Assembly: GCA_016788905.1 (NCBI GenBank)
Contig: JAEURZ010000014.1
Location: forward strand, 14,707-78,706
From: Elusimicrobiota bacterium
GTDB lineage: Bacteria > Elusimicrobiota > Elusimicrobia > FEN-1173
Direction of reading: 5' to 3'
Length of the DNA stretch: 64,000 nucleotides
The translations under genes and the position numbers were made by a program. The notes under the pieces were generated by a model, which searched no databases, was not told the DNA's origin, and saw only the letters and a program-made list of their open reading frames with translations. Positions 7,451 through 37,228 of the stretch are shown in pieces (the first letter of the stretch is position 1; the number at the start of each line of letters is the position of its first letter).

Positions 7451-7695
7451 AGGTCCCTCCCAAATGGCGTTTCGCCTCTTTCCCCATCAACCTATAAGAA
7501 ATTGGCCACAATGAGCTTCAAGTTTACTCCCCATCCCGTCTGATCATACGGGCGAAGAAGAACCCCCACAAAGAGTCTCACGAGGCCAAAATATCAAAGC
7601 GATTTCTCTGACGCAATCAGGGAGATCCAAGAGAATGATGCAAGAGATCGAAAGTCCCCAATTTTACCCATAAACGGTGCTCTGGGTTGATACAT

Positions 7696-7726
7696 GAGGA
7701 GTCAAAAGGGCGATCGCCTTGACCCA
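7696..7726 (-). terminator. Imperfect palindrome GTCAAAAGGGCGATCGCCTTGAC downstream of the REC-MTase gene; possible terminator
   Basis: Inverted repeat containing GGCGATCGCC immediately after the stop of the 7752-9146 gene, followed by T-rich run on the minus strand. Confidence 0.3.
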
Positions 7727-7751
7727 CCGGTCGCCAAGGAGAGTCTTTTAA

Positions 7752-9146
7752 TTAGTTAAAGGGATTATTTTTTAGACCACCCATTCGAAAGAAAAAAACC
7801 ATGTCATCCAAATCCCGACGAAACTTACGGGGGAGAGCGGCTCTTTGAAGGCGGAGATTTGTTGAAAGGACAGGTGGCAATGGACGATCCGGCGTTTTAA
7901 CAAAAATAAACAATGGAACCCCATGGGTGCTGTACACCTGGGCCGAAGCTGGGAGGCATTCGCGCGTAAGAACTTGAAAATCTTTCAGACTAAAAGACGC
8001 CCGCAAAGACCGTTCAAAATCGAGGTTGAACAAATACGGCTGGGTTTTTTCTTCTTTATAGGCAAAATAGAGGACAGACTTGAGAGATTTCAGTCGGCCT
8101 AAATCGGCGAGAAAAATGGCCCCACCCGGTTTCAGTATGCGGCGAATCTCACGAAAACAGTCTTTTAAGTGTTCTCGCGTGGGCAAATGATGTAACGCAA
8201 CCGTACTGATAACCCCATCCACACTGCCCTCTTCGAAAATACCGAGTTGCGTGACATCGGATTTTTGAAAAGTGACATTGGTCAGCCCCCGACCTTGAAT
8301 GTACGCACGCGCCTGGTCCAACATAGAATCCGACATATCCACCCCCACAAAGGAAATGTCCGGGTTCAGCTGAGCCACTTCGGCCAGTTGGGTGGCCGGC
8401 CCACACGCAAGGTCCACCACCCGTGAGCATCCTTGAATCGCAAGACTGATTCGAGCCGCGTGGTGGAGATAAACGGCACGAAAGCCTCCCTCCCGTCGTC
8501 CCGCGGTGGCATAGGCCACCACTTCCGTTGAATCTTCCATGACGAGGTCCGGTTCAGGTTCTCTGCGCAAGCGGCGTTGCCCCATCGTTTCCCGAAGCAA
8601 AACCCAGAGCATCGGCAAATTCAAAAACCGTCGAAACGTAGAAAACAAATCAGATAGGACCACACGGAAGCAACGACGATCGGACGATTTAAAATAATCC
8701 GCTTCTTCCTGTTGTGATTTTTGATCCACGGAAGGCCTCGTCGCAGGAGGGGCCTCGGAAAGAACGAATGAGCGGCCTGTTCGGCGAAGAAGGCTCGCCA
8801 CCCGGGCCAAAAATTCGGAAGCCTCATAGGGTTTTGTCATGTAATCATCTGCCCCGGTTTGCAAACCTTCGACTTTGTCTTCTGTTTTTAATAGCGACGT
8901 GAGGAGAAGCACCGGGACCGTTCGCGTGCGCTGGTCATTGCGAAGGATTTCGCATAACTTTACCCCTGAAATCCCGGGCAATCGAATGTCCGCCACCAGG
9001 AGGTTCGGAGACTCTTGAAAAACAATTTTTAAGGCTTCTTCGGCGGATCCCACATCAATCACCTGGTATCCCGCCCGATTTAAAATAATCCGTGTCACAT
9101 TTCGCATTTCCGAATCGTCTTCAACGAGAAGAATGAGTGGTTTCAT
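7752..9146 (-). CDS. Response-regulator receiver domain fused to a class I SAM-dependent methyltransferase (464 aa)
   Basis: N-terminus MKPLILLVEDD...LLVADIRLPGISG...GADDYMTKP is a REC domain; C-terminus VVDLACGPA (motif I), VGVDMS, DGVISTVALHHL, LKPGGAIFLADL are class I MTase motifs; start overlaps the HK stop by 4 nt. Confidence 0.75.
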   Translation of the reverse strand: MKPLILLVEDDSEMRNVTRIILNRAGYQVIDVGSAEEALKIVFQESPNLLVADIRLPGISGVKLCEILRNDQRTRTVPVLLLTSLLKTEDKVEGLQTGADDYMTKPYEASEFLARVASLLRRTGRSFVLSEAPPATRPSVDQKSQQEEADYFKSSDRRCFRVVLSDLFSTFRRFLNLPMLWVLLRETMGQRRLRREPEPDLVMEDSTEVVAYATAGRREGGFRAVYLHHAARISLAIQGCSRVVDLACGPATQLAEVAQLNPDISFVGVDMSDSMLDQARAYIQGRGLTNVTFQKSDVTQLGIFEEGSVDGVISTVALHHLPTREHLKDCFREIRRILKPGGAIFLADLGRLKSLKSVLYFAYKEEKTQPYLFNLDFERSLRASFSLKDFQVLTRECLPASAQVYSTHGVPLFIFVKTPDRPLPPVLSTNLRLQRAALPRKFRRDLDDMVFFFRMGGLKNNPFN

Positions 9147-10528
9147 AAAATCCCCTTATGAATCGGTAACGTAAAAAACAAAGCGGTCCCCTGCCCAACT
9201 ACGGATTCCACACGCAGGCGTCCTCCGTGCCCCTCCACCAAGCTTTTCACAATAGAAAGTCCCAGCCCTGAACCCTCTTGAGGTCCCGTGTTCAGAACGC
9301 GGACGGGCTGAAAGAGACGCGACAACCGTTCCGGGGTAATTCCGGGCCCCGTGTCTTTGACACCAAACTCAACGAACCCGTTGGTTTGCGCGGCGCTGAA
9401 AATGACGATAGAATCACCCCCTTGAGTGAATTTAAACGCGTTGGCCACCAGGTTCAAGAAAATGCGCAAGGTTTTTTCTTCATCCGCTTCCAGAAGAGGA
9501 AGCGTTTCGGGAAACTGAACCATGAACATCTTGTTGGATTCTTTCGCGAACGGACCGTACAGTCGAACCAGTTCTTCCACAAGGGGGGCCACCTGAAAAA
9601 CAGTCTTCCGAAAGGGAATTTCCCCTTCTCTTAACCGGGCCGCGTCCAAGATATTATTGACCATGACCCTCAAGCGGAGAGCTCCCCTCTCAATAGATTC
9701 GATGAGAGTCCGATCTTCACCCGAAAAAGCTCCTGACCGCAACACCTGAGCCGCGGTACTGATGGCACTGAGCGGATTACGTAAATCGTGAGATATGGCG
9801 TAAAGAATTCGTTCCTTCATTTCATCCAGTTCCCGCAGCCGAACCGCCATACCGTTAAATTCCCGTGCCAGACCACCCAATTCGCCCGGCGCTTTTTCGG
9901 ATACCCGAGTGTCCAACGCGCCCGATCCGATTTTTCGCGCGCCCGCGGCAAGCGCGTGAATGGGTCGTGTCAAGGTTCGCGCGGCCAAGAAGGACAGGCC
10001 TGTTCCCATGAGCAACACACCGACACCCAACCACAAAAAACGCCCCACCGTAGAGATCAGGGCCAGACGAAGTCGAGTAAGGACCCTCTCCCCATCATAA
10101 ACCACCCGCGCGGTCGCGACCCAGTCTCCCCCCTGGAAAATGGGAGATCGATAGTCCCAGCGGGATCCGACGCCTGATTCTGTCAACATGATTTTTTGCG
10201 GTTCAGCCGGAGCCCAATCCGCCTTCTTCCCTTTTTTAGTCAAGTCCGTATGCATGAGTAATTTCCCCTGAGGATTCACGCAGGCCGCTTCCACTAGGGC
10301 ACCTTCCGTTTTCAGCTGATTCATAAAATCGATGAGGCCTAACTCATTCCGGGACAGGAGTGCGTCCCCACAAGCCAATCCGAGGTGGTCCACTGTAATC
10401 CAATGGGTTTTTTCTGCCTCGCGAACAAGGTGTTGACGCTCGGCCCAAAGAAGAACACCGGAATAGACCAGGAGGACAAAAAACGTGAGGGCGGCAATCG
10501 CAACGGCGAATCGGGTCCCGATGCTCAT
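9143..10528 (-). CDS. Sensor histidine kinase (two TM helices, periplasmic sensor, HAMP, HisKA, HATPase_c)
   Basis: H-box ISHDLRNPLSAI, G-box GTGLGLSIVKSLVEGHGG, N-terminal TM plus a second TM around residue 160. Confidence 0.8.
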   Translation of the reverse strand: MSIGTRFAVAIAALTFFVLLVYSGVLLWAERQHLVREAEKTHWITVDHLGLACGDALLSRNELGLIDFMNQLKTEGALVEAACVNPQGKLLMHTDLTKKGKKADWAPAEPQKIMLTESGVGSRWDYRSPIFQGGDWVATARVVYDGERVLTRLRLALISTVGRFLWLGVGVLLMGTGLSFLAARTLTRPIHALAAGARKIGSGALDTRVSEKAPGELGGLAREFNGMAVRLRELDEMKERILYAISHDLRNPLSAISTAAQVLRSGAFSGEDRTLIESIERGALRLRVMVNNILDAARLREGEIPFRKTVFQVAPLVEELVRLYGPFAKESNKMFMVQFPETLPLLEADEEKTLRIFLNLVANAFKFTQGGDSIVIFSAAQTNGFVEFGVKDTGPGITPERLSRLFQPVRVLNTGPQEGSGLGLSIVKSLVEGHGGRLRVESVVGQGTALFFTLPIHKGIL

Positions 10529-11739
10529 GGGTGATTCTTTAATTGCCGGACAACCCGATCCAAAGCCCGCGCCGCCATTTCATCATCCGGCGCCAACCCA
10601 ACACATTGCTCAAAAGCCTTCCGCGCGGCCGAAAGGTCCCCTCGGGAATATTCCATCAACCCCTTGGAATAATATTCTGCGGCTCTTTCGTGGTCTGGAG
10701 CGGTTGGGCGAGCCAGGGGTTTTTCACTTTTATGGGGGTAGGACTTTCCCCAATCCTCCCAGAGGCGCCCGAGATTTTCCCGAGCCGCTGTGTTCAAAGG
10801 ATCTTCTTTCAAAACAGCCAACCATTCGCGCACGGCTTCTTGACGACGCCCCTGAAACTCGGCTTCCCGGGCACGGCCAATGCGACGGCCTAAATCGGCC
10901 CTCTGGGATTCGCGTCGAACGATTTCCTCTAAACGTTGAACTTCTTCCTTTGCAAAACGGTTTGTCGAATCCAACACCAACCCTTCCCGATAATACCCCA
11001 AGGCCGCCCGATAATTTCCTTCTGAATATTGGGTTTCGCCCAATCCAAATTTCTTTCTTGCGAGAGCACGCCGTTCATCTATTTTCAGGCTGTTTTCAAT
11101 TTCCTGAACATAACGTGCTAACTCCTGATCGGAGGGATCCAAACTTAACGCCTTTTTCCATTCCGTCAAAGCGGGAACAATATCCATTCGTTGGTAAGCC
11201 ATAAAACCAGAAACACGATGAATATCCACTTCGGCGGGAAGCACGCCCGCCGCAACACCTGAAGAGAGGGAGAGACAAAGATCTCTAAGATACTCATTGC
11301 GGCGGGGGTCGGGGTCATCGTTCGCCAGGGAGATTTGCATTTGAAGTTCGACACCCCGACAGGTGTGAAGGAGAGATTCCGGCGTGGTCCGCCATTTGTG
11401 TTCATAGGACGCTCGAAGGTTGTTGAGCGCTTTCCGCGTTTCATGTTCCTGCTGATTTAAGGTGTGAAGGGCGCGAACGAGAGCGGGCCCGCGATCCTCT
11501 CGGGCAAGGACATCCAGTTCATTGGCCTTTTTTTCAATGGCCGCGGCGGTCACCTTCAGGCGTTTCAGGGCACCGACATGGCCTGGATCTTCCGAGAGGA
11601 TGTCCAGGAGCTTATCCATGGCCCCGGTCAGATCTCCCTGAGCCTGGAGTTCTTTCCAATCCTGAAATGGGGGTTTTCCCCCCGCCCAAAGGCCAACGGT
11701 CCCGAGAAAGAGAAAAACTAACGCCCCGAATCGTCCCAT
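10525..11739 (-). CDS. Secreted tetratricopeptide-repeat (TPR) protein with signal peptide
   Basis: MGRFGALVFLFLGTVGLWAGG signal; repeated helical A/L/Y-rich 34-aa units (AALGYYREGL..., AAEYYSKGLMEY...); 4-nt overlap with the HK start. Confidence 0.6.
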   Translation of the reverse strand: MGRFGALVFLFLGTVGLWAGGKPPFQDWKELQAQGDLTGAMDKLLDILSEDPGHVGALKRLKVTAAAIEKKANELDVLAREDRGPALVRALHTLNQQEHETRKALNNLRASYEHKWRTTPESLLHTCRGVELQMQISLANDDPDPRRNEYLRDLCLSLSSGVAAGVLPAEVDIHRVSGFMAYQRMDIVPALTEWKKALSLDPSDQELARYVQEIENSLKIDERRALARKKFGLGETQYSEGNYRAALGYYREGLVLDSTNRFAKEEVQRLEEIVRRESQRADLGRRIGRAREAEFQGRRQEAVREWLAVLKEDPLNTAARENLGRLWEDWGKSYPHKSEKPLARPTAPDHERAAEYYSKGLMEYSRGDLSAARKAFEQCVGLAPDDEMAARALDRVVRQLKNHP

Positions 11740-12776
11740 TCTTTTTTGAGCCGTTGGTTGGCCTCCCGCAACTTCAGGAGGGCTTTTGAGTGATGGGGGT
11801 CCGCCGCCAAGGCACGGTTGAAATTCACTACGGCTCGGGCAAAATCTTCTTGCCGCAAATAACCCAATCCCTTTTCATAAAACGCTTCCGCGGGTTTCCC
11901 AAAGTGCCAAACCAGTCCCACATGGTGCGTGTTCCCCAGATCCCCCAGAGGGGCAAACGCGTAATCCAAACGGAGATCTCCCACACGAAACCCCAACCCG
12001 TAAGTAAACGAATCTTCTGTACTCCCATCATACCCCAAACGAAAAAAGGACGAACCGCCGGAGGCGTATTCGATCCCCACCATCGGGCGGAGGTCTTCTC
12101 CGTTGGATTGGACCAGGTCCGCCGCTAGAGTAATTTTTTCATCCCAAACCCCTGTGGCAATCCCAAACCGTAATTCACGCGGCGGGCCTTGCCCGGGGGA
12201 CCAACCCACCCCCAGTCTTCGAACGGAAACTCCCGCGCGGAACCCCTGGAAAAACGTGGGCGCGGGGAGACGAGCCAATAATCCCCCATCAAAAAATGCC
12301 CCTTGAATGGATTGATCGTGAAATTTACGTTCGGTTTGATTCAACGCGATACCCGCCCACACTCGATTTCGAAATCCTCCCGCGCCGGAAATCTGGAACC
12401 AATCTTCGCGTGCGCCAATGTTGCCCAGCGCGTTTCCTGACGAATCCAGCCCCGAGATGGTTCCGTAATCGACACCTGACCACCGGGCGGCCAAGGTTCC
12501 TTTTTCCATGGGAAAGGCAACACCCAAGGAGTCTCTTATTATGGATTCGACCCCCTCGTGGTGGGAAAGGGACACTTCCCCCCGGGCCAACCGCCCCAGA
12601 CCGGCAGGATTCAAAACCCCGGACGCGTGGTCATCCCCCAACGCCGTCCCGGCCCCACCCAGGCCCATGGAACGAACTCCAGGAGAAGCGGAAAGGAATT
12701 CCCATTCTTCTCCCTCTCCTGCCAAAAGGGATAAGGAGAAGAGCACCCCTCCGACAGCGATAACTATTTTTTTCAT
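11718..12776 (-). CDS. Outer-membrane beta-barrel protein of the PorV/FadL-like type with a C-terminal TPR-like tail
   Basis: Signal peptide MKKIVIAVGGVLFSLSLLAG; N-terminal motif GLGGAGTALGDDHASGVLNPAGLG (as in PorV/FadL-family barrels); alternating Gly/aromatic beta-strand pattern; C-terminal YAFAPLGDLGNTHHVGLVWHF then a helical segment. Confidence 0.45.
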   Translation of the reverse strand: MKKIVIAVGGVLFSLSLLAGEGEEWEFLSASPGVRSMGLGGAGTALGDDHASGVLNPAGLGRLARGEVSLSHHEGVESIIRDSLGVAFPMEKGTLAARWSGVDYGTISGLDSSGNALGNIGAREDWFQISGAGGFRNRVWAGIALNQTERKFHDQSIQGAFFDGGLLARLPAPTFFQGFRAGVSVRRLGVGWSPGQGPPRELRFGIATGVWDEKITLAADLVQSNGEDLRPMVGIEYASGGSSFFRLGYDGSTEDSFTYGLGFRVGDLRLDYAFAPLGDLGNTHHVGLVWHFGKPAEAFYEKGLGYLRQEDFARAVVNFNRALAADPHHSKALLKLREANQRLKKEWDDSGR

Positions 12777-25954: not shown

Positions 25955-26947
25955 CTACAATTCCAGCGTGATCCCCCGCTTTAATTGGAGAGCTCTCTGG
26001 TAAACACAACCGGCCACCGCCACATCCTGAATGGCGAGGCCCGTGGAATCGAAAACCGTGATGTCCCGGTCCGATTGGCGCCCGGGTTTCTTCCCCGTCA
26101 CAATTTCACCCAGACTGGCCGCAATGTTTCGAACGGTGATGGTCCCCGCCTCAATACCCATATTGATTTCACCGGAATGAAGGGCTTGTTCGGGACTGTC
26201 CACAATGACCCGCGCCCGCTTCAATATCTCCACATCCAATTCCTGTTTACCCGGGGCATCGGCCCCGATAGCGTTGATATGGGTCCCTTCACGAATCCAA
26301 TCGGATTTCACCACCACGTCCCGGCCCGGCGTGGTGGTCACCACAATGTCCGCCCCACAGGCCTCTTGAACCGTTACCGGACGAAGAACTGGACCGCCCG
26401 AACGGGCGTGGCGCGTGCAGAAAGATTGAGCTTCTTCCAGCGATTGCGCCGCCACGAGAACTTCCCGCAAAGGGAAGAGAGTCGCCAGGGCCGTGAACTG
26501 GGTTGCCGCTTGCCGCCCGGCGCCCACCAAACCCAAAATACTCGATTCTTTCCGGGCCAAATATTTTGCGGCCACACCGCCTCCCGCTCCGGTCCGAACA
26601 TCGGTCAGCCGACCCGCGGCCATGACCGCGAGGGGCATCCCGGTCTCCGGGTCGTTCAGAATATAGATGGCGCTCACCGTGGGCAGTCCCCGTTTGGGGT
26701 TTCCCGGATGGGAATTGACCACTTTGACCCCCGCAAAAGGCCGATTCCCCGCACAGGAAATTTTAGGGATGTAGGCCGGCATGGCCCGCAGGTCGCCCCC
26801 ATATTCCGTAAATTCCAAATAGAGTTTCGGCGGCATTTGGGCATCGCCCCGGGCCAAATGGCCAAAGGCTTCTTCCACCAACGGCATGGCCGCCTCCACC
26901 GTAAGTAAACGATCCACCTCTTTTTCGGAGAGCCAGAGAATGTCCAT
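25955..26947 (-). CDS. Ornithine cyclodeaminase / mu-crystallin family NAD-binding protein
   Basis: LGLVGAGRQAATQFTALATLFP Rossmann motif and overall OCD-family pattern; 330 aa. Confidence 0.65.
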   Translation of the reverse strand: MDILWLSEKEVDRLLTVEAAMPLVEEAFGHLARGDAQMPPKLYLEFTEYGGDLRAMPAYIPKISCAGNRPFAGVKVVNSHPGNPKRGLPTVSAIYILNDPETGMPLAVMAAGRLTDVRTGAGGGVAAKYLARKESSILGLVGAGRQAATQFTALATLFPLREVLVAAQSLEEAQSFCTRHARSGGPVLRPVTVQEACGADIVVTTTPGRDVVVKSDWIREGTHINAIGADAPGKQELDVEILKRARVIVDSPEQALHSGEINMGIEAGTITVRNIAASLGEIVTGKKPGRQSDRDITVFDSTGLAIQDVAVAGCVYQRALQLKRGITLEL

Positions 26948-28224
26948 TAGACCTCCCGGAAGGCAGCTTGCGCCGCGGATAGCGTTTTTTCGATATCGTG
27001 AATCGAATGGGCGGCCGAAACGAAACTCGCCTCAAATTGAGATGGGGGGAAATACACTCCCCGCTTCAACAGACCGTGAAAAAATCTTCCGTAAGCGGCG
27101 GTGTTCGATTTCTCTGCGGAAACCAAATCCGTTACGGGATGAGGAGTGAAGAACACGGTAAACATGGACCCCACATTATTGACCGTGACCTCCACCCCCT
27201 GCCGACGGGCCAGATCCCGTAAGCCCTCTGTCAATAGCTTGGTTTTTTTTCGAAGGGCCCCATAGGGGGGGGATTTTTTTAACAGGGCCAACGTCGCCGC
27301 CCCTGCCGCCATGGCCACCGGATTTCCCGATAGAGTGCCCGCCTGATACACCGGGCCCAAGGGCGCGACCTTTTCCATCAAACGCTTGGGTCCTCCGAAA
27401 GCTCCCACGGGGAATCCGCCCCCAAGAATCTTGCCGAAACAGGTGATGTCCGCCTGAAGCCCCAACCATTCTTGCGCCCCGCCCCACGCCAACCGAAAAC
27501 CTGTCATCACCTCGTCCACGATAAGGAGAGCGCCGTGACGGCGGGGAATATTTTGGAGCGCCCCTTGAAATTCAGGCGAGGGGGAGACCACCCCCATGTT
27601 CCCCACCACCGGTTCAACGATGACGGCCGCAATCTTTTTTCCCCATTTTGAAAACACCTTGGCGAGCGCCACGGGATCGTTGTAGGGAAGGACCAAGGTT
27701 AACCGGGCCAGTTCCTTGGGGACTCCCGCCGATGTGGGGTGGCCCAGTGTGAGAGCCCCACTCCCCGCGGAAACCAAGAGGCTGTCCCCATGGCCATGAT
27801 AACAACCCGCAAATTTCACAATCAACGATCGCCCCGTGGTGCCCCGAGCCAATCGAAGCGCCGAAAGACAGGCCTCCGTTCCCGAACTCGTGAACCGGAG
27901 AAGATCAACGGTGGGATAGGCCTGGCGCACCAAATGGGCCAGGGCGAGTTCCCGGGGGGAGGGTGCTCCAAAGGAACTGCCCTCTTCCAAGGCCCGGCGG
28001 GCCTCCTGAACAACGACCGGATGGGCGTGGCCCAAAATCAGAGGGCCCCAGGATCCCACGTAATCCACATATTTTTTGTTGTCCACATCCGTGAGGGTAG
28101 AGCCCCGGGCCCGGGCCATAAAGACGGGGGTTCCCCCCACCGCGCGAAAGGCACGCACGGGGGAATTAACTCCTCCCACAAATATTTTTTGGGCTTGCTT
28201 AAAAAGAGTTTGGGAACGGGTCAT
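26947..28224 (-). CDS. hemL: Glutamate-1-semialdehyde 2,1-aminomutase HemL
   Basis: LFKQAQKIFVGGVNSPVRAF...VDEVMTGFR class-III aminotransferase / HemL signature; 425 aa. Confidence 0.9.
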   Translation of the reverse strand: MTRSQTLFKQAQKIFVGGVNSPVRAFRAVGGTPVFMARARGSTLTDVDNKKYVDYVGSWGPLILGHAHPVVVQEARRALEEGSSFGAPSPRELALAHLVRQAYPTVDLLRFTSSGTEACLSALRLARGTTGRSLIVKFAGCYHGHGDSLLVSAGSGALTLGHPTSAGVPKELARLTLVLPYNDPVALAKVFSKWGKKIAAVIVEPVVGNMGVVSPSPEFQGALQNIPRRHGALLIVDEVMTGFRLAWGGAQEWLGLQADITCFGKILGGGFPVGAFGGPKRLMEKVAPLGPVYQAGTLSGNPVAMAAGAATLALLKKSPPYGALRKKTKLLTEGLRDLARRQGVEVTVNNVGSMFTVFFTPHPVTDLVSAEKSNTAAYGRFFHGLLKRGVYFPPSQFEASFVSAAHSIHDIEKTLSAAQAAFREV

Positions 28225-29072
28225 GGGGTCTCCGTATCGTTGGGAGGTGCAGGGACATAGACCGTGGTGTTCTCCGGAAGCCCATCTCGACGAATTTGAA
28301 ATCCACCGGGTGGTAAAAATTTTACACGTTCAAATCTTTCGATAAAAGGCGCCAGAGGATTGAACTCAAAGAAGCGCGTGCGTGGGGTACCGTAATGCAT
28401 GGGGATCACAACACGGGGGCGAATTTCCTGGACCAACCCCGCCGCCGTTTCTGCGTCAACGGTGGTTCGGCCCCCCACAGGAATAAAAAGGACATCCACC
28501 CCCGTTAAGGCTTCTTTTTGTTCCGGTCGAAGGGAGCGCTGGCCCATATCCCCTAAATGGGCCCACCGAAGCCCTCCCATCTCCCACACATACATTCGGG
28601 TGGTTCCGTTCCTTCGCCCTTCCTGATCATCATGGTCCGCCAATGTCCCGACCACCTCGATTCCCGCGACCATTTGGGTTCCCGTACTGCGCACCACAGG
28701 AAAAGCCGCGGACGCCGATGGGGCCGCGCGGGATTCGGACCTTCGAGACAGACTCACTTCCTTCCCGGCGACCACATTATTTTCTTGGGCTGGCAAAAGA
28801 GCAGGAGGCTTAGGAACCGCGTCGTGGTCAAAGTGTTCGTGGGACACCAGGGCCGCGTCCGGCTTGATCTTCACCGCCGGATACCCGACCGTATCGTCAA
28901 AGGGGTCCAGAAGAAAAACCCGCCCCGCGCTGTCCTGAAGCGTGAAACAGGAATGCCCTTTCCAAACCACGAATACCCCGAGATTCGGATCGCCAGGCGG
29001 TCGGACCAGGGGACGCGAGAAACATCCACTTCCCCCCAGAACGATAAGACAAACGAACCAAAATGGCTTCAT
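28221..29072 (-). CDS. Metallo-beta-lactamase-fold hydrolase, lipoprotein
   Basis: Signal/lipobox LGGSGC; HEHFDHD zinc-binding motif. Confidence 0.6.
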
Positions 29073-30046
29073 TGATCCGCGAGCCGTTGAGCCATCTCCT
29101 GGGCGTGGTAGGTCAAAATCACGTCGGCGCCCGCACGCTTAATGGAAAGGAGGATTTCTTCCATGACCCTTGGCCCGTCCACCCATCCTTTCGCCGCGGC
29201 GGCCTTCACCAGGGCGTATTCGCCCGAAACGTTGTAAGCGGCCACCGGTACATCAAACCGATCTCTGACCCGTTGGATCACGTCCAAATAGGCTAACGCG
29301 GGTTTCACCATGACCATGTCGGCCCCTTCTTCTAGATCCAACGCTACTTCCTTGAGGGCTTCACGACCGTTGGCGGGGTCCATCTGATGGGTTCGTCGAT
29401 CCCCAAAGGCCGGAACCGACTGGGCCGCGTCTCGGAACGGGCCGTAGAAAGACGAAGCGTATTTAGCGGCGTAGGCCAAAATGGCCGTGTTCTTTCGACC
29501 GTCCGCGTCCAAGGAACGTCGGATGGCGGCCACCGCGCCGTCCATCATTCCGGAGGGAGCCACCCAATCGGCGCCCGCGGCCGCTTGCACGAGGGCTGTT
29601 CGGCTCAAGAGTTCAAGCGTGGCGTCGTTATCAATTTCAGCACCACGAACAACCCCACAATGGCCGTGATCCGTGTATTCACAAAGACACAAATCCGTTA
29701 TTACAAGCAGGTCAGGCAAGGCGTCTTTCACCGCCCGAACAGCCCGCTGGACAATTCCATCGGGAGAATAAGCGTCTCGTCCAAGGGGATCCTTCTTGGC
29801 TGGAACACCAAAAAGGATGATCGCGGGAACCCCCAGCTTCGCGCAGGCGCGGGCGTCTTTGACCATCTGATCGACGGAAAGCTGGCTGACGCCCGGCATG
29901 CTTCGCACAGAGCGGCGTTCGTTTTTTCCGGGTCGAACAAAAAACGGTTGAATCAAATCGGCGGGAGTCAGTTCTGTTTCACGGAGCATACGCCGGGAAG
30001 AAAGGGACGATCGGAGCCGACGGGGACGAATTTTAGGGAGGGGCAT
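29069..30046 (-). CDS. hemB: Porphobilinogen synthase (delta-aminolevulinate dehydratase) HemB
   Basis: RPRRLR...LIQPFFV N-terminus, active-site lysine context [12 protein letters not shown]; 325 aa. Confidence 0.9.
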
Positions 30047-30050
30047 GGAA

Positions 30051-30863
30051 CTATTTTACTTTTTCCCTGAAACCCTGGGCCAGAATCCGAAGCATCGCCG
30101 GATGGATGGGTCCGTTCGAAGCCAGCGTCTGGGACGTGTCGGTTAACGCGTAGGGCCGACCCCTGAAATTCGTCACCCGTCCACCGGCCTCCTCCACCAA
30201 CAATTTCCCAGCGGCCGCGTCCCAAGGTTTAAGATTAAATTCCCAATACCCGTCAAATCGCCCCGCCGCCACATAGGCCAAATCCAAGGCCGCCGCTCCC
30301 AGCCGCCGCAGCCCCTGAACCCGTTGCATGAATTGTTCCACGAAGGAGAGATAGAAGCGGGCTTTTTTATGCCTGTCGTAAGGGAAACCCGTCACGAGCA
30401 AACTGTCGATCAAACGTTGGGTTTTGGAAACATGAATCGGGCGCCCATTCAATGTGGCTCCTTTTCCTTTCACCGCAATAAATAGTTCTTCCCGAAAAGG
30501 ATCATAGACACCCCCCATCAAAACCTGTCCGTTTTTTTCCAATCCGATGGACACACAACTGATGGGAACCCTGTGGGCAAAGTTCACCGTCCCGTCCAAA
30601 GGATCCACCACCCAGCGGTATTCCGAGGAAGAGGCGTGGAGGCCTGACTCTTCCATGAGAAACCCATGGTCCGGGAACGCGCCGCGAAGAACGTTAAGAA
30701 TCTTTTTTTCTGCCGCGTGGTCCACCGTTGTCACGATGTCGACCACTCCCTTGTGCGAAATAGAAATAGACCGGCGAGCCCCCCGCCGGTGAATGGCCCC
30801 CGCCTCGGTTAAGGCGCGACGAAGCGCGCGCAACAAAGAAGTGGGTGTGGGCGTTGCGTTCAT
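30051..30863 (-). CDS. Inositol-monophosphatase-family protein (SuhB/CysQ-like)
   Basis: [12 protein letters not shown] metal-binding motif and GG..DP... IMPase fold. Confidence 0.75.
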
Positions 30864-30892
30864 GCTTGAACCGCACCGATCAGGAAATTATG

Positions 30893-30934
30893 ATGCTTAC
30901 AAAACATAATGTTTATTAAACATTATGTTGTTGG
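30893..30934. repeat. Left copy of palindrome-containing inverted repeat (ATGCTTACAAAACATAATGTTTATTAAACATTATGTTG) flanking the DUF234 ATPase gene
   Basis: Contains AACATAATGTT and its complement AACATTATGTT; 19/22 identical to the reverse complement of 32247-32268. Confidence 0.7.
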
Positions 30935-32217
30935 AGAAGGGAACCGATATCGGACATCCCCAAAATTCGATATTCGACAGGCGACAACGTTGAACTTAAG
31001 CGTGTTGAGATAAACCGACGCTCCAAATCCCGCGTCAGGCCAGCTCGTTCATCTGAAGAAAGTGCCCGCCATTTGCATTCCCCCACCAGGTGCGCACGTT
31101 GAGAAGGGATCCGCGCCACCACATCGATTTCGACCAAACTTTCCCAGTATCTCCCACCACCCGGAAAACGGGACCGACAAAAAATCTCCCATTGACGGGC
31201 CACATGCTGATGAATTCTCTCCAGTTTTTCCTTGGAATCCATCGCCCCCCATCGGTGTCGCGTGGGCAAATAGACGCTGTAGTAAAAGCGCAAGGCAGGG
31301 TCCTGAATGGTGTAAAGAACCTTTTTCGTGGAGCGTGGAGTTTGTCCAAAGGGGGATTCCCGGTTCACAAAGCCCAGATCCAAGAGGAGAGCCAGCGGTC
31401 GGGACAGGTTCCCTTGGGGAAGTCCCAACCGAGACGCGAGCTCTCCTGGTTTTGACACCCCACGCCCAATCAGGTCCACCAGCGCTTTCGCGACCGTGCC
31501 CGACACCCCTTCTTCCGTCAACCAGGCGGACGGCTCTGCCGCCAAGGGCGCGGACGGACGGTAATACAATTCCTCCACCTGTTCTAAAAGCGACCCACGC
31601 GGCATCATCCGCCAATAGTGAGGAACGCCTCCCACTATAGAGTATCGACTAAACGTGAGGGGATCCAAGGGATTATAGTGGAGTGCCCGACAGAACCATT
31701 CGTAAGGAAGGGGATCCAAGTTTAAATGGAAATCGGCGCGCCCAAAGAGAGGAGACTCTTGACGCAGGAAATGAGAATGCAGCATGGATTGGGAAGACCC
31801 AGAGACCAAAAGGAGGGTTTTGTGTTTCGGGAGTTCGTGGTCCACCCATTCCTGGAGAACGCTGGGAAGCGTGGGATCCCCCTGGACCCAGTAAGGAAAT
31901 TCGTCGAAGACGACCAAGCTCGGCCATTTTTCTCGGGAAAGGAGCGAAAGGAATTCCACCCAGCTTTTGGGAACCACACTTTTGAGGATCGGGAAATGGG
32001 ATTGAAACTCCTCGGCCAAGTGGAGAATTTGTTGTTGGGGTGTTCCCTCAACGGCTTGATGATACAGCCCCCCCCCCTCCTGACAGATTTCCCCCAGAAG
32101 AGCCGTTTTTCCCACACGACGGCGTCCCGTGACTAAACCGAACCCTCCGTGACGGAGAGCGCGGCGTAATTGCTTTAGTTCATCGGTCCGGTTCCAAAAC
32201 ACGCGCAGAGGGGCCAT
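30916..32217 (-). CDS. AAA+ ATPase with C-terminal DUF234 (PD-(D/E)xK-like) domain (archaeal-ATPase family)
   Basis: Walker A GLVTGRRRVGKTALL, Walker B LVVFDEF, C-terminal EIDVVA...VGECKW typical of DUF234; ATG at 32217 preferred over the TTG two codons upstream. Confidence 0.7.
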   Translation of the reverse strand: MAPLRVFWNRTDELKQLRRALRHGGFGLVTGRRRVGKTALLGEICQEGGGLYHQAVEGTPQQQILHLAEEFQSHFPILKSVVPKSWVEFLSLLSREKWPSLVVFDEFPYWVQGDPTLPSVLQEWVDHELPKHKTLLLVSGSSQSMLHSHFLRQESPLFGRADFHLNLDPLPYEWFCRALHYNPLDPLTFSRYSIVGGVPHYWRMMPRGSLLEQVEELYYRPSAPLAAEPSAWLTEEGVSGTVAKALVDLIGRGVSKPGELASRLGLPQGNLSRPLALLLDLGFVNRESPFGQTPRSTKKVLYTIQDPALRFYYSVYLPTRHRWGAMDSKEKLERIHQHVARQWEIFCRSRFPGGGRYWESLVEIDVVARIPSQRAHLVGECKWRALSSDERAGLTRDLERRFISTRLSSTLSPVEYRILGMSDIGSLLQQHNV

Positions 32218-32227
32218 GGCCAATAAT

Positions 32228-32268
32228 AATGCTAGTTAAACATTATGTTTGTCAAGCATTATGTTTAA
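32228..32268. repeat. Right copy of inverted repeat (AAACATTATGTTTGTCAAGCATTATGTTTAA) between cobA-hemD stop and ATPase start
   Basis: Two tandem ACATTATGTTT units; reverse complement ATGCTTGACAAACATAATGTTT matches 30893-30914. Confidence 0.7.
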
Positions 32269-33797
32269 GACAACGTTTTGACGACCGCGCGGGCGAGATC
32301 TTCAACGGTGGCGGAACCGGTGGCCTGAAGGGGGCGGATGCCCCCGGCGCGAAGCGCTTGGCTTGTGATCGGGCCGATGGAGACGGCGCGGGTCCGGGAA
32401 AAAATTCGTTGACGCTCCCGGGGGGTGAAATTCCTCATGAAGGAGGTGGCCGTTGACGAGGATGTAAACGTGACGGCGTCCATCTCACCGGCTCGAAGCG
32501 TGGCCTGGGCCTCCGGGGTGAGGGCCACCGGCTTTGTTTCGTAAAGGGGCCACAGGTCCACGGAGGCCCCGCGACGGGCCAAGACCGTTTGGATCACATC
32601 CCGGCCTTCTCGGGCCCGAACCAAAAGATACTTTTTCCCTCTCAGGGTTCGCCCGAACAAGGAGACCACTCCTTCCGATTGAAAGGTGTCAGCGGTTCGA
32701 TAAACACGAAGATCCTCAGACCGAAGGGCGTCCGCCGTTTTAGCCCCAATCGCGTAGAGAGGAAGGCAGGCCCGCCCCTTAAGATGTCTGGACAAAATTT
32801 TAGCTCCGTTCGCGCTGGTGACGATGAGACCATCATACTCCGAGAGTTTTTTTAAGAATTGCCGCCCGGTGGTATTGAGGGGCAACGGGGTGATGGCGAT
32901 GAGCGGGCTTTCGATGACACGGGCTCCCGATTCTTCTAAAAGCCCGGTGAGACCGGAGGCTTGATCCCGAGCGCGCGTCACAAGAACCGTTTTCCCAAAG
33001 AGGGGCCGTTTTTCAAACCAGTTCAGTTTAGTCCGAAACCCGGCAACATCACCCACCACAATGATCGCGGGCGCCCCAAGACGTTCCGCTTTCACTCTCT
33101 GGGAAATATTCTCCAACGTGCCGCGAACGGTCTTCTGTTGAGGCCAACTCCCCCATTGAACGACGGCCGCCGGGAGTGAAGACGGCCATCCGAGATCCAA
33201 AAGTCTCCGGGCGATCACGGGCAACTGGTTGAGACCCATCAAAACCACCAAGGTCCCCGTGGGTGAAATTTTAGCCCAATCCACCCCCGGCCCCCGCCGG
33301 CGGGCCGACTGCCCGGCGCTCTCTCCCAAATAGGGGTTTTCTCGGCCTTCATGCCCCGTCACCACTGTGAGTGCAGACGCGTGACCCCGGTGAGTTAATG
33401 GAATGCCCGCCAATCCGGGGACCGAGGTGACCGAACTCACACCGGGGACCACCTCAAAGGGAATCCCCTGATCAGCCAAGGCTTCCGCCTCTTCCGCTCC
33501 CCGACCAAAGAAGTAAGGATCTCCGCCTTTTAACCGCACGACAGTTTTCCCCTGTTTCGCTAACCGAACAATCAGCCGGTTAATGTCGGGTTGCCGTAGA
33601 AACACCCGCCCTCCGCCCCGCTTCCCCGCTTCGATAATTTTCACTTTGGGGGAACAGTGGGATAAAATTCGCCGGTCCACCAGGGCATCCAACACCACCA
33701 CATCGGCCCGGCGGAGACACTCCACCCCGCGCAAGGTCATTAAATCCGGACGACCGGGACCGGCACCAACCAGGTAAACTGTTTTTGATGGGATCAC
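32265..33797 (-). CDS. cobA/hemD: Fused uroporphyrinogen-III C-methyltransferase / uroporphyrinogen-III synthase (CobA-HemD)
   Basis: N-terminal VYLVGAGPGRPDLMTLRG SUMT motif; C-terminal half has the HemD fold; 510 aa. Confidence 0.85.
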   Translation of the reverse strand: MIPSKTVYLVGAGPGRPDLMTLRGVECLRRADVVVLDALVDRRILSHCSPKVKIIEAGKRGGGRVFLRQPDINRLIVRLAKQGKTVVRLKGGDPYFFGRGAEEAEALADQGIPFEVVPGVSSVTSVPGLAGIPLTHRGHASALTVVTGHEGRENPYLGESAGQSARRRGPGVDWAKISPTGTLVVLMGLNQLPVIARRLLDLGWPSSLPAAVVQWGSWPQQKTVRGTLENISQRVKAERLGAPAIIVVGDVAGFRTKLNWFEKRPLFGKTVLVTRARDQASGLTGLLEESGARVIESPLIAITPLPLNTTGRQFLKKLSEYDGLIVTSANGAKILSRHLKGRACLPLYAIGAKTADALRSEDLRVYRTADTFQSEGVVSLFGRTLRGKKYLLVRAREGRDVIQTVLARRGASVDLWPLYETKPVALTPEAQATLRAGEMDAVTFTSSSTATSFMRNFTPRERQRIFSRTRAVSIGPITSQALRAGGIRPLQATGSATVEDLARAVVKTLS

Positions 33798-34318
33798 GAT
33801 CGTTTTTCAAAACCAATTTTGCGGATCGGGTGAGTCGGTCCATCCAGAAGGGGATGAATCAGGTCGAACATTTTTTGGACGTAGTCGGTGAGCCCCTCGG
33901 TTCTTTTCTCTTGCGCCGCGATGCGTCGAGCAAGATCTCGATGCAGGGAGATCCCCTGGCGAAGCCGAACGAAAGCACGCATAATGGCAATGTTGACATC
34001 AATAGCGCGTGGGCTACGAAGCACACCCGACAACATGGCGACGCCCTGCTCGGTAAAAACGTAGGGGCGCGCCTTAGGATCGCGGTGCTTTTGCGAACCG
34101 GTCACAATCTGTGACCGGTTCAGCTGTCGTAATTCACCCAAGGATAATTGGAACATAAAATCATCTGGAAACCGTTTGAGGTTACGTCGAACCGCTTGGT
34201 TTAATACTTTTGTGGGGACCCCATAGAGGGTGGCCAGATCTTTGTCCATCATGACCTTGTGCCCACGAATCAAATAGATTTGTTCATGGATGCGCTGTTC
34301 AGGAATGAGGAAACTCAT
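33794..34318 (-). CDS. ORF6N-domain protein (KilA-N-related, phage antirepressor-like DNA-binding protein)
   Basis: IRGHKVMMDKDLATLYGVPTKVLNQAVRRNLKRFPDDFMFQLS matches the ORF6N domain consensus; 174 aa; 4-nt overlaps with both neighbours. Confidence 0.7.
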   Translation of the reverse strand: MSFLIPEQRIHEQIYLIRGHKVMMDKDLATLYGVPTKVLNQAVRRNLKRFPDDFMFQLSLGELRQLNRSQIVTGSQKHRDPKARPYVFTEQGVAMLSGVLRSPRAIDVNIAIMRAFVRLRQGISLHRDLARRIAAQEKRTEGLTDYVQKMFDLIHPLLDGPTHPIRKIGFEKRS

Positions 34319-35235
34319 GGGAGAAGAGTTTCTAGAATTTCCAGGGCCCCTTGATTAAGCAGACGTTGGGCAAGAGTTTGTCCTATTTTGGGGGCGTCAG
34401 TGAGGAGACCAGTTTCTGTGCCTTTCACATCATTTTTACCATCGACGGACGTGACCCGTCCATCCAAAACAAGTTGGCCCGCCTCTTCCCGGGCGTACGC
34501 CGCGATGGGAACGCGACATCCGCCTCCCAGAGCCGCCAGGAAGCCGCGCTCCGCGATGGCGGCGTGTTGGCCAGGCAGATGATTGAGCTGGGACACCCAT
34601 TTCATCGTCTCAGGATCTTCTCCGCGAATTTCGATGGCCACAAACCCTTGGCCGGGCGCGGGGAGAACAAGATCGAATGGCAAAACTTCCGTCACCTCTT
34701 CGGCCCGGCCCAAGCGACGCACCCCGGCGTAAGCCACCACCACGGCCGAAAAATCTCCCGCCGCCACCCGACCCAAACGGGTGTCCAAATTCCCCCGCAG
34801 ATCTTCAATCCGGATGCCTTTTTTGACCGCACGGATTTGGGCCTGTCGGCGGAGCGAACTGGTTCCGATGACCGATCCCCGGGGGAGTTCCATCAACTGT
34901 TCCCCGAACCGCGACACCACACAATCCCGGGGATCTTCCCTCTCCAAGATGGCGCCGACCATTAATCCCGAAGGGAGTTCCGTAGGAAGATCTTTCAGCG
35001 AATGGACCGCCAGGTCCACGGTCTTGGAGAGAAGGGCTTCTTCCAACTCTTTGGTGAACACCCCTTTCCCGCCAATCGACGCGAGGGAAGCGTCCGCCAA
35101 ACGATCCCCCGTGGTTTTAATGATTTGGAGATCGACTTGAAGACCCGGGGAAAGAGATTCCAATCGACTTTTGACAAAGCGGGATTGGGCCAGAGCTAAG
35201 GCGCTTCCGCGTGTGCCGATCGTTAAACGGGTCAT
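34315..35235 (-). CDS. hemC: Hydroxymethylbilane synthase (porphobilinogen deaminase) HemC
   Basis: LTIGTRGSALALAQ N-terminus and dipyrromethane cofactor Cys region; 306 aa. Confidence 0.9.
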   Translation of the reverse strand: MTRLTIGTRGSALALAQSRFVKSRLESLSPGLQVDLQIIKTTGDRLADASLASIGGKGVFTKELEEALLSKTVDLAVHSLKDLPTELPSGLMVGAILEREDPRDCVVSRFGEQLMELPRGSVIGTSSLRRQAQIRAVKKGIRIEDLRGNLDTRLGRVAAGDFSAVVVAYAGVRRLGRAEEVTEVLPFDLVLPAPGQGFVAIEIRGEDPETMKWVSQLNHLPGQHAAIAERGFLAALGGGCRVPIAAYAREEAGQLVLDGRVTSVDGKNDVKGTETGLLTDAPKIGQTLAQRLLNQGALEILETLLP

Positions 35236-36317
35236 CCGGGCTCCGCCTCAACGCTTAAGGATTCGCGGGAGTTGTGGCGGAGCGCCGCGGTGGTTCCCTG
35301 CCGCCAGGAATCATACCAGGGCGAAAACTCCTTGGCTTTTTCATCCACCAGCCGCCCGGCCTTGTCGATCTCCGACTCGCGTTGGACCAGACTTTCGGAG
35401 ACGATCCCTTCCAAGTCGTCGATGTTGTAGAGATAAACGCTGTCCAATTCATCCACAGCGGGATCCACATCCCGGGGAACCGCAATGTCAATAAAAAAGA
35501 GGGGTCGCCCATGGCGCTCATCGATAACGCGCGCGATGTCTTCTTTCTTAAAAATAGTTCCGGCCGCACCTGTGGAACATATGACGATGTCCGCTTGAAC
35601 CAGTTCTTGGGGAAGGGCTTCGAAGGGGGTGGGATGGGCCCCGAACTGTTCCGCCATGGCGACCGCTTTTTCAAGCGTGCGGTTGGCGATCGTGAGTCGC
35701 CCCACCTTTTGGCTTTTGAGCGCCCGAGCCGCCAGTTCCGCCATGGCCCCGGCGCCGACGACCAGAGCACGGCTCTCGGATAGTTCCCCGAAAATGCGGC
35801 GGGCCAGGGAAACGGCCAGACTGGGAACTGAGGTGGGCCCCTCGGCAATTTTGGTTTCCGTGCGGACGGTTTTTCCCACAAACATGGCCCGCTGAAAAAG
35901 AACGTTGGTGAGTTTGCCCGTGGACTGGGATTGGCGGGCCAGATCGTAGGAGCGTTTCACTTGACCCAATATTTCGGCCTCTCCCACCACCAGGGAATCG
36001 AGCCCCGCCACCACGCGAAACAGGTGCCGGATCGCTGCATCGTCCTCCAAGGCGTACAAGCTTCCGTCCAACGAGACATCCCCGTGTAAATCCAACAGAC
36101 CTTTCCGCAAGAGACATTCGGCATCACCTTCCGGCGGGGTGGCGGCGTACACTTCCACGCGGTTGCAGGTGGAGAGGACCACCGCTTCCACGACACCCAC
36201 CGACTGGCGAAGGGAAAACAGGAAGGCCGGCAACCGATTGTCCGACACCGCCAACCGCTCCCGCCATTCCACGGGGGCGGTCCGGTGAGACACACCCACC
36301 ATGCGGAGCCGTTTCAT
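35232..36317 (-). CDS. hemA: Glutamyl-tRNA reductase HemA (start at internal Met MKRLRMVGVSHRTAPVEWRE)
   Basis: VGVSHRTAPVEWRERLA, catalytic Cys context LSTCNRVEVY, NADPH-binding GAGAMAELAARAL; ORF part upstream of 36317 overlaps the preceding gene. Confidence 0.85.
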   Translation of the reverse strand: MKRLRMVGVSHRTAPVEWRERLAVSDNRLPAFLFSLRQSVGVVEAVVLSTCNRVEVYAATPPEGDAECLLRKGLLDLHGDVSLDGSLYALEDDAAIRHLFRVVAGLDSLVVGEAEILGQVKRSYDLARQSQSTGKLTNVLFQRAMFVGKTVRTETKIAEGPTSVPSLAVSLARRIFGELSESRALVVGAGAMAELAARALKSQKVGRLTIANRTLEKAVAMAEQFGAHPTPFEALPQELVQADIVICSTGAAGTIFKKEDIARVIDERHGRPLFFIDIAVPRDVDPAVDELDSVYLYNIDDLEGIVSESLVQRESEIDKAGRLVDEKAKEFSPWYDSWRQGTTAALRHNSRESLSVEAEPG

Positions 36318-37228
36318 TGTTTTTCTATGGCCACGTAGCCGTGGGTCTTTGAAACATAGTTGATTCCCATGTAACTCACGAGAACAAGCCCAAATCCGGC
36401 GAGCGATAGGTAAGCCGCCCGCCGCCCCCGCCAATTAAACCCGTAACGGAGAACCAGATAGGCCAGGTAGACCGCCCAAACCACAACGGACCAAATGATT
36501 TTGGGATCCGATACCCAGCCGCCCCCCCATGACGAATGGGCCCAGACAATGCCCAACCCGAGCCCCAGGGTGAGCGCTGGGAATGCAACCGCGATGAGCC
36601 GCGCGATCAAACGATCCATTTCTTCTAAGGAAGGCAATCGATACCCCAACTCCGTGGGGCGCCGGGTTTTAATCTGGCGTTCTTGGATGAGAAAAGCCAA
36701 CCCAATTCCGAAGGCATTCGCGAACGCCGCGTAGGCCAAGAAAAGGAGAGGCACATGGATGGCGGCCCAAACGGAAACCGGCATGACCGACAGATGGCGC
36801 GTGGCGTCCGCGGCTTTAAGAAAGTCTTCAACCGAAGCAAACGGACACCGAGGACTTGCGAGGAACGCTTTGGTCAACGCCAATCCCATCAAGAGAAGAG
36901 CCCAGGGCAAAACGAAGGCCCCCAAGATGGCAAGCCGCGCCCGCGTTTGAACCCCCAGAAAAACAACAACGATCAAGAGAGAAAAGAGCGAGAGGCTCGT
37001 AAACCAATTGCTCCAAAACCCGTAGGCCACGTGGCCGGGCCGATGGCTTTCCGCCCAGAGGCCGAGCGCGAGGCTTGCGGCGTGGAGGACCACGGATCCC
37101 CAAAGAATCCGATGCCCCAGGGAACCGTGCCGGTCCCGACGGGAGAACACGTAGGTCAAATACAGGATCACCGCGGTCAGGTAACCAATAAACCCAAAAT
37201 CAAAAAGAAGCGCTTCAATTTTTTGCAC
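36314..37228 (-). CDS. Cytochrome c assembly (CcsA/HemX-like) integral membrane protein
   Basis: Multiple TM helices, W-rich segment (WAHSSWGGGW) typical of the CcsA/ResC heme-handling family; position upstream of hemA as hemX in hemAXCDBL; start (GTG 37228 or ATG 37297) uncertain. Confidence 0.55.
   Translation of the reverse strand: MQKIEALLFDFGFIGYLTAVILYLTYVFSRRDRHGSLGHRILWGSVVLHAASLALGLWAESHRPGHVAYGFWSNWFTSLSLFSLLIVVVFLGVQTRARLAILGAFVLPWALLLMGLALTKAFLASPRCPFASVEDFLKAADATRHLSVMPVSVWAAIHVPLLFLAYAAFANAFGIGLAFLIQERQIKTRRPTELGYRLPSLEEMDRLIARLIAVAFPALTLGLGLGIVWAHSSWGGGWVSDPKIIWSVVVWAVYLAYLVLRYGFNWRGRRAAYLSLAGFGLVLVSYMGINYVSKTHGYVAIEKQ

Follow-up and report, generated by a model that had tools for sequence, protein, structure and literature searches.

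The gene for a 433-amino-acid ATPase with a DUF234 C-terminal domain, inserted into the heme biosynthesis (hem) operon of an Elusimicrobiota bacterium, is bordered on both sides by palindromic repeats. It lies in a 64-kb stretch of contig JAEURZ010000014.1 (assembly GCA_016788905.1), here called the window, a term that covers the whole of that stretch. With a probability of roughly 0.6, gene and repeats form a self-contained, autoregulated single-gene cassette, in which the palindromes are two copies of the gene's own control module. The insertion, the membership of the module in the gene family, the conservation of the module and its promoter-like geometry are directly established. The DUF234 family and the type of control logic are known already, while the literature searched has no account of the conserved, putatively leaderless promoter-operator module, of a second copy behind the gene, or of the gene's place within a heme operon.

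The putative control module and the insertion

The palindromic feature is real and non-random. When up to two mismatches were allowed, AAACATWATGTTT had five matches in the 64 kb, where chance predicts 1.18 and none of 100 shuffles reached five, and the four matches with at most one mismatch clustered at 30902, 30918, 32238 and 32254. Each flank of the gene is a module of about 45 nucleotides (nt), in which three CATnATG dyads recur with a 16-nt period, and the whole module is palindromic. An initial annotation, made from the sequence alone, had reported the dyad twice in each of the two spacers beside the gene. The dyad is indeed present on both sides, but there are three per side, and not all of them are confined to the spacers: the downstream dyad r1' (30918-30930) constitutes the last five codons and the stop of the ATPase open reading frame (ORF), while the outermost upstream dyad r1 holds the cobA-hemD stop TAA (32265-32267). 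The same annotation had described the flanks as inverted repeats, which they are (30890-30926 against 32226-32262, 37 nt, 78% complementary), although an equally good direct repeat exists beside this pairing (30886-30929 against 32222-32265, 44 nt, 77%). The flanks match equally well in both orientations because each side is itself a palindrome, the upstream site pairing 32226-32243 with 32245-32262 at 83%. Its claim that the window has no other occurrence of the motif was borne out by pattern searches and by a module profile search, which found no copy in the 64 kb beyond the two around the ATPase gene. The features of the two modules are as follows.

32221-32266, minus strand: upstream promoter-operator module, AAACATAATGCTTGACAAACATAATGTTTAACTAGCATTATTATTG, a palindrome centred on r2 and the best match to the module profile in the window (nhmmer E 5.9e-12)
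32254-32266, 32238-32250 and ~32224-32234, minus strand: upstream dyads r1, r2 and r3
32250-32255, minus strand: -35-like hexamer TTGACA, between r1 and r2, from the promoter scan
32226-32231, minus strand: -10-like hexamer CATTAT, inside r3 and ending 8 nt ahead of the ATG; no Shine-Dalgarno sequence is present
30886-30930, minus strand: second, downstream copy of the module, CAACATAATGTTTAATAAACATTATGTTTTGTAAGCATCATAATT (nhmmer E 0.012 direct, 0.11 inverted)
30918-30930, 30902-30914 and ~30888-30898, minus strand: downstream dyads r1', r2' and r3'
30887-30915, minus strand: promoter-like site TAAACA-17 nt-CATAAT, directed towards suhB, the ATG of which is 24 nt downstream (9/12 matches)

The promoter scan matched the site before the ATPase gene, TTGACA-18 nt-CATTAT, at 10/12 positions. 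The overlap of the dyads with this site, and with the weaker one before suhB, suits the second interpretation offered by the initial annotation, in which the repeats are operator sites.

The upstream module is found wherever the close family of the gene was retrieved. A genome scan for the family, using two peptide patterns only, returned 19 loci, and across the full set of close-family loci the module stands directly before the ATG in 22 of 22 (ATPase identity 48-87%). These loci are in metagenome-assembled genomes of Elusimicrobia, Omnitrophota, Chlamydiae, Planctomycetes, Deltaproteobacteria, Acidobacteria and Pseudomonadota, and their gene neighbourhoods are unrelated, with the module following ClpB, Ddl or a radical-SAM gene, or preceding ATP synthase genes. 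A search of the flanks of the family loci with the module profile found no copy apart from those at the ATPase gene. The motif was therefore not observed upstream of many unrelated genes, in either the window or these flanks, although the initial annotation had foreseen this as the mark of a generic operator.

The conservation of the module exceeds that of its surroundings. The sequence ACATAATGCTTGACAAACATAATGTTTAACTAGCATTATT is identical at 40/40 nt in the lineages of the window and of loci L002 and L006, with the sequence to either side having diverged, and with the four-fold degenerate sites of these lineages only ~49% identical (48-50%). The module consensus is AAcATnATGCTTGACAaACATnATGTTt....aaGcATnAT, in which the centre base of the dyad is free to vary, and one locus (L013) has a perfect 15+1+15 palindrome. 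The -35 hexamer TTGACA is near-invariant across loci, the spacer between -35 and -10 is conserved as strongly as the hexamers themselves, and a TTGACA-18 nt-CATnAT site is also present in L002 and L006. In all 22 loci the dyads flank and fill this promoter-like arrangement. In ~20 of the 22, the -10 hexamer is followed by the ATG after 6-10 nt (mode 6-8) without a Shine-Dalgarno sequence, which implies that the mRNA is probably leaderless. On this distribution and geometry, the upstream module belongs to the gene family as its predicted promoter-operator region.

Some loci vary in the number of dyads or in the annotated start of the gene. L015 (~3925-3990), L017 (~3930-3990) and L112 (~2935-2998) have four dyads rather than three, with an extra ATGCTTGTCAAACAT-type unit upstream. 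In L105 and L106, gene callers set the ATPase start at an ATG in the third dyad (position 6001 in both), and the family alignment supports a start 15-18 nt farther along the gene; N-terminal extensions of this kind are probably common in public annotations of the DUF234 family.

The gene itself stands between the following members of the hem operon.

35232-36434, minus strand: hemA
34315-35235, minus strand: hemC
33794-34318, minus strand: ORF6N-domain gene
32265-33797, minus strand: cobA-hemD fusion gene, at the left edge of the insertion (Pfam TP_methylase and HEM4)
30916-32217, minus strand: DUF234 ATPase gene, 433 amino acids
30051-30863, minus strand: suhB-like inositol-monophosphatase-family gene, at the right edge of the insertion (Pfam Inositol_P)
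29069-30046, minus strand: hemB
28221-29072, minus strand: metallo-beta-lactamase (MBL)-fold gene
26947-28224, minus strand: hemL

The junctions of this operon overlap or leave gaps of at most 4 nt, except at the spacers 30864-30915 and 32218-32264 bordering the ATPase gene, which are the only sizeable ones, as had been noted. Comparison with relatives identifies the gene as a single-gene insertion at the stop/start junction of cobA-hemD and suhB. A metagenome scan using the SuhB protein as query retrieved seven loci (L027-L032 and L085, SuhB 67-76% identical) that have hemA-hemC-cobA/hemD-suhB-hemB-MBL-hemL but no ATPase gene; in three of them (L028, L029 and L085) cobA-hemD and suhB overlap at stop and start, the junction reading ATGA. 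Hence the initial suggestion of a single-gene insertion agrees with empty sites in relatives, in which cobA-hemD abuts or overlaps suhB as anticipated. The target-site scar that was expected alongside is not recognisable in the window, and no direct repeat above chance flanks the gene in the window, in L002 or in most other loci. The 24-30 nt ahead of suhB may be what is left of the former 3' end of cobA-hemD, although they resemble neither the upstream copy nor the empty sites more than chance would predict.

The insertion is old by the same comparison, the gene having been acquired by an ancestor of this Elusimicrobia lineage. Orthologues with 83% identity (L002-L005) occupy the identical position between cobA-hemD and suhB, and those with 87% identity (L006 and L007) are followed by suhB and preceded by a DDE transposase gene. 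The shared position, together with an identity of only 48-50% at four-fold degenerate sites, dates the insertion to before the lineages separated. The protein identity of the orthologues in the window, L002 and L006 is 83-87%, which at this level of four-fold divergence signifies purifying selection on the ATPase.

In L006, the region upstream of the gene has been replaced by a DDE_Tnp_IS240 / rve_3 transposase gene (1239-1970) and ~500 nt of non-coding sequence, and the 45-nt module (2433-2480) is intact.

The protein comprises an AAA+ domain (Walker A GRRRVGKT, Walker B VFDEF), a putative winged helix (~240-305) and a PD-(D/E)xK nuclease domain (D365, E380, K382), matching its first description as an AAA+ ATPase with a DUF234 PD-(D/E)xK C-domain. 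Pfam matches to ATPase_2 (PF01637, 52.2 bits, cutoff 33.2) and DUF234 (PF03008, 31.7 bits, cutoff 22.5) were above their cutoffs, the corresponding orthologous group being COG1672, and the residues G31-K37/T of Walker A, D105-E106 of Walker B, and the catalytic D365, E380 and K382 were invariant across an alignment of 23 sequences. DUF234 has been classed as a PD-(D/E)xK family (PMC3424549). The Pfam scan of the product had no transposase family match, and no Xre/HTH_3 match, which places this 433-residue, multi-domain protein outside the C-protein family. Its AlphaFold2 model (pLDDT 88) has a visible helix-turn-helix-wing pattern, and its nearest folds are the archaeal ATPase_2 structures 2qen and 2fna, followed by Apaf-1, ORC2/Cdc6, MuB and RuvB; there is no solved structure of a full-length family member, as 2qen and 2fna cover the ATPase part only.

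The protein is also a phage-defence candidate, a function predicted from its similarity to PADLOC candidate PDC-S27, the hidden Markov models (HMMs) of which match residues ~7-330 (PDLC04984, E 1e-26; PDLC04985, E 9e-18) from a library that has no curated cutoff. PDC-S27 is an ATPase fused to a PD-(D/E)xK domain that was found through "guilt by embedding" (PMC12988326; 10.1101/2024.01.29.577857). DUF234 / PDC-S27 proteins number in the thousands and are widespread in Bacteria and Archaea, and most of the PDCs under discussion still await experimental validation (PMC12988326); no validated defence activity has been reported for PDC-S27 in the literature searched.

Proposed autoregulation and its alternatives

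In the proposed mechanism, the three dyads 16 nt apart would be interleaved with a sigma-70-type TTGACA-18 nt-CATnAT promoter, producing a leaderless mRNA that would need no ribosome-binding site. The dyads would most likely be bound by the protein's own winged helix, as dimers or as a higher oligomer, and the resulting autoregulation would keep a potentially toxic nuclease low in any host. The downstream copy, with one full dyad and flanking half-sites, would be a second operator for the same protein, acting as a roadblock or a looping partner and, in the window only, possibly as a restart promoter for suhB-hemB-MBL-hemL. The combination of a promoter that is independent of ribosome-binding sites and a self-encoded repressor would explain how the gene functions after transfer between distant phyla, and the CATnATG dyads at a 16-nt period supply a concrete DNA ligand, and an autoregulation hypothesis, for the DUF234 / PDC-S27 family. 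The identity of the dyad-binding protein, the leaderless start, the downstream role and the defence function are in each case predictions. A hint of the binding partner comes from distant homologues. Those with recognisable CATnATG modules, at 32-37% identity (L108 on the Protochlamydia plasmid pPNK, L022 and L020), retain L-S/N-R in the putative recognition helix, and those with other repeated dyads (L024, L109 and L110) have H, E or S at the recognition-helix position, such that protein and site appear to co-vary.

Several points weigh against this proposal. The co-variation was seen in a sample of ~12 sequences, and the winged helix corresponds to matches to MarR_2 and HTH_20 (residues ~253-288) and to an ArsR-type domain (within ~245-305) that fall below the Pfam and NCBIfam cutoffs. 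The promoter was scored against a sigma-70-type TTGACA / TATAAT-like pattern, which may not be that of the Elusimicrobia RNA polymerase. Protein-dyad binding, transcription starts and expression in the DUF234 family are all inferred from sequence, and the literature searched for DUF234, PF03008 and COG1672 yielded a few passing mentions, with nothing on regulation or mobility. The downstream copy may stem from a lost tandem cassette or from a more-than-unit-length insert, and its conservation cannot be explained by the restart-promoter role, since the promoter-like site is found in the window only. Finally, the dyads could belong to the host: an iron-, heme- or stress-responsive repressor might bind them to control the hem operon, with the ATPase gene merely lying between its sites. 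The AT-rich dyads do stand at two promoter-like sites within a heme operon, and binding by the cassette's own protein is a prediction. Nevertheless, where relatives have this hem operon but not the ATPase gene, the sites are missing and the genes overlap at the junction; the module accompanies the ATPase gene into unrelated contexts in at least six phyla; and neither a further copy nor a regulon signal is found in the 64 kb. A host regulator is very unlikely on this evidence. To our knowledge, the half-site AAACAT does not resemble the sites of Fur, Zur, LexA or NrdR.

The downstream copy admits other explanations as well. It is weaker than the upstream copy, directly follows the ATPase stop, and is found only in the window (L001), L002-L005 and L006-L007, with the profile search identifying no downstream module within 3-6 kb at any of the 19 loci outside this lineage. 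Relatives that carry the gene without repeats, which the initial annotation had named as a counter-sign, thus exist for the downstream copy and not for the upstream one. In the window and L002, it overlaps the last five codons of the ORF. It could be a relic, the upstream copy alone being functional and the downstream one a decaying by-product, left for instance by the promoter of a tandem cassette since lost or by a duplication at the time of insertion. Such decay would account for its degeneracy (nhmmer E 0.012, against 5.9e-12 upstream), for a third dyad and -10 hexamer that are not conserved, and for its absence from the rest of the family. It would not account for the central dyad r2', which is intact in all three lineages despite saturated four-fold sites (~49% identity), nor for the ~25 of 40 columns invariant among them, where neutrality would leave roughly a quarter (both this expectation and the contrast being estimates, from the ~49% pairwise identity). 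The copy has, moreover, persisted since before the lineages split. A relic is therefore unlikely, if worth some weight, and the downstream copy is most likely a retained second binding site, as far as its putative function can be read from conservation. It may also be a restart promoter for suhB-hemB-MBL-hemL in the window, the only place where a promoter-like site was called; there is none in L002 or L006, and hence downstream promoter function is not conserved.

That the palindromes act in RNA, folding at the 3' end of the ATPase gene into a hairpin that terminates, stabilises or insulates, is most improbable. From r1' and r2' a 12-bp hairpin can form, with UUUUG after it, and the surrounding 82 nt fold with a minimum free energy of -15.6 kcal/mol (z-score -2.0), but the stem, which the terminator scan does not call, is made entirely of A-U or G-U pairs, and the fold differs in L006 (z-score -1.1). 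Furthermore, a leaderless mRNA from the cassette would not include the upstream copy, and conservation tracks dyad symmetry with a free centre base, the pattern of a protein site. As a distinct candidate, an intrinsic terminator was rejected: no stem is G+C-rich, the z-scores span -1.1 to -2.0, the shape is not conserved and the scan did not call it.

The suhB-ATPase spacer also contains a promoter-like site on the opposite strand (TTGAAC-17 nt-TATGAT, 30866-30894, plus strand). It would be antisense to the ATPase gene, reading into its 3' end, and is probably a by-product of the palindromic module.

The remaining alternatives concern mobility. Outside the window's lineage the gene is solitary, usually between co-directional housekeeping genes, with the end of the upstream gene at the module or within it. 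Neither an integrase nor a transposase was found near the gene in these loci, and an all-against-all BLAST identified no flanks common to non-orthologous loci beyond the module plus ORF. Viral contigs contained no exact match to the module, and plasmid and phage collections contained only homologues of ~21-32% identity. At three loci the cassette is flanked, at a distance of 4-100 nt, by direct repeats that far exceed chance and resemble target duplications.

L106: 21 nt, perfect, beginning 4 nt after the stop codon and splitting a terminator hairpin
L013: 19 nt, with 1 mismatch
L114: 34 nt, 31/34 identical, containing a hairpin

The cassette looks mobile. The variation in the lengths and distances of the repeats speaks against fixed element ends, and the position of the L106 repeat, 4 nt past the stop, means that this unit has one module only.

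These loci bear on the first interpretation in the initial annotation, that the repeats are the terminal inverted repeats of a small transposon, autonomous or not, with the ATPase gene as its sole cargo. In its favour, the borders of the insert coincide with the modules, the cobA-hemD stop being in the outer dyad and the suhB start 24 nt past the downstream module; the arms pair over 37 nt at 78%; the product has nuclease and AAA+ domains, in principle capable of acting on DNA, the latter with weak similarity to TnsC (E 0.009) and also to MuB; and the family is solitary and scattered over phyla. Yet profile searches of the 19 loci outside the lineage found the upstream copy only, the recent-looking L106 unit manages with one module, and direct repeats of 19, 21 and 34 nt at 4-100 nt provide neither fixed ends nor a target duplication of fixed length. 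In the window, the two modules align as well in direct as in inverted orientation, and no second copy of an element is present. Terminal inverted repeats were therefore rejected, the upstream repeat being the family's predicted promoter and the downstream one a feature of a single lineage, and we give a transposon of this kind very little credence.

A different form of mobility is decidedly unlikely, though less so. The cassette might be an autonomous single-gene mobile element of an undescribed type, the protein of which would recognise its own 45-nt module, insert the module plus gene, and leave 19-34-nt duplications. Its targets would be hairpin-forming or stop/start junction sites between co-directional genes, and the two modules in the window would be a trace of the process, such as the insertion of slightly over one unit from a tandem or circular form. 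Were this true, the operon embedding of PDC-type genes would reflect an insertion mechanism, not a role in defence.

Comparison with known systems

The autoregulated cassette most resembles the C-protein circuits of mobile restriction-modification (R-M) systems. The regulators C.PvuII, C.AhdI and C.Esp1396I act, as is proposed for the cassette, through tandem palindromic operators (C-boxes) that lie directly before the regulator's own coding sequence and overlap its promoter. Leaderless mRNAs, and occasional weaker copies of the motif downstream, are features that these genes would likewise share with the cassette (PMC2632904). Such circuits permit host-independent, dosed and self-limiting nuclease expression after horizontal transfer (PMC2632904; see also PMC2175313), and the same purpose may apply here by analogy. 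The differences are as clear. The putative regulator is a winged helix within a 433-residue ATPase-nuclease rather than a separate Xre-type protein of ~80 residues; the cassette has three dyads with a 16-nt period where C-box systems have two C-boxes; its promoter has a clear -35/-10 pair, whereas C-box promoters usually have no good -10; and it has no methyltransferase partner, unlike R-M systems, with binding in the cassette being predicted. Hence, by this analogy, the cassette most likely works like a C-box circuit, yet outside the C-protein family.

With the "embedded" PDC-S27 genes of Payne et al. (10.1101/2024.01.29.577857), the cassette shares the HMM match (E 1e-26), a single-gene format and embedding in an operon in the same orientation. 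However, PDC-S27 candidates were defined by their embedding in BREX, DISARM and type I R-M operons, whereas the host operon here is for heme biosynthesis; the PDC-S27 literature searched has no mention of a cis-module. Two such candidates, PDC-S27 and the ORF6N gene that matches PDC-S05, are embedded in this housekeeping operon. Therefore embedding needs to be used with care as a criterion for defence.

As a unit encoding a nuclease, without integrase or transposase, among housekeeping genes, the cassette is comparable to the R-M units of Furuta, Abe and Kobayashi 2010 (PMC2853133), and the variable-length, regionally unique direct repeats at its loci (21 nt in L106, 19 nt in L013, 34 nt in L114) are comparable to those of R-M units with long target duplications. 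In that study, a duplication counted if it exceeded 30 bp and was confirmed by an empty site; of the three loci L114 alone is that long, and the comparison covered occupied sites. The window also differs from such units in having no recognisable flanking repeat.

In its first ~300 residues the modelled ATPase has the AAA+ plus winged-helix fold of Orc1/Cdc6- and STAND-type AAA+ proteins (2qen, 2fna). The dyad-like sites next to the ATPase's own gene recall the origin-recognition boxes beside orc1/cdc6. In contrast to both groups, the ATPase adds a C-terminal PD-(D/E)xK domain, and it is bacterial, solitary and horizontally spread, with no link to replication.

Neighbouring genes and other loci

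The suhB-like and MBL-fold genes, which are odd partners for heme-synthesis genes, are constant members of the hemA-hemC-cobA/hemD-suhB-hemB-MBL-hemL operon (window 26947-36434; L027-L032 and L085). The ORF6N-domain gene (33794-34318, minus strand, 174 amino acids; PDC-S05 match in PADLOC, E 2e-52) lies between hemC and cobA-hemD, and its start and stop overlap both neighbours (ATGA, GTGA). It is missing from L002-L005, in which hemC and cobA-hemD overlap directly. The same junction contains a 311-residue ORF, CorA-like by eye, in L085 (2525-3460), and an 82-residue and a 366-residue ORF in L028 (2023-3400), and appears to have taken up insertions repeatedly.

On the contig of the 83%-identical orthologue L003, hemB and an ornithine-cyclodeaminase-family gene are each split into two ORFs (8398-9317 and 11442-12438). 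Both are unbroken in L002 and L004, and the split is likely an assembly or sequencing frameshift.

Two other loci have notable surroundings. In L105, a tRNA-like gene recognised by eye (~7410-7470) lies ~85 nt past the ATPase stop, and a second ATPase, of the AAA_14 plus DUF4143 type (7520-8716), is convergent with the adjoining tRNA-like stretch. In L114, the cassette is between a nucleotidyltransferase/HEPN pair (2091-2832) and a Gp49/HTH_3 pair (4646-5346), both of them toxin-antitoxin-like, so that it seems to belong to a small cluster of selfish or defence genes, where other loci have housekeeping neighbours.

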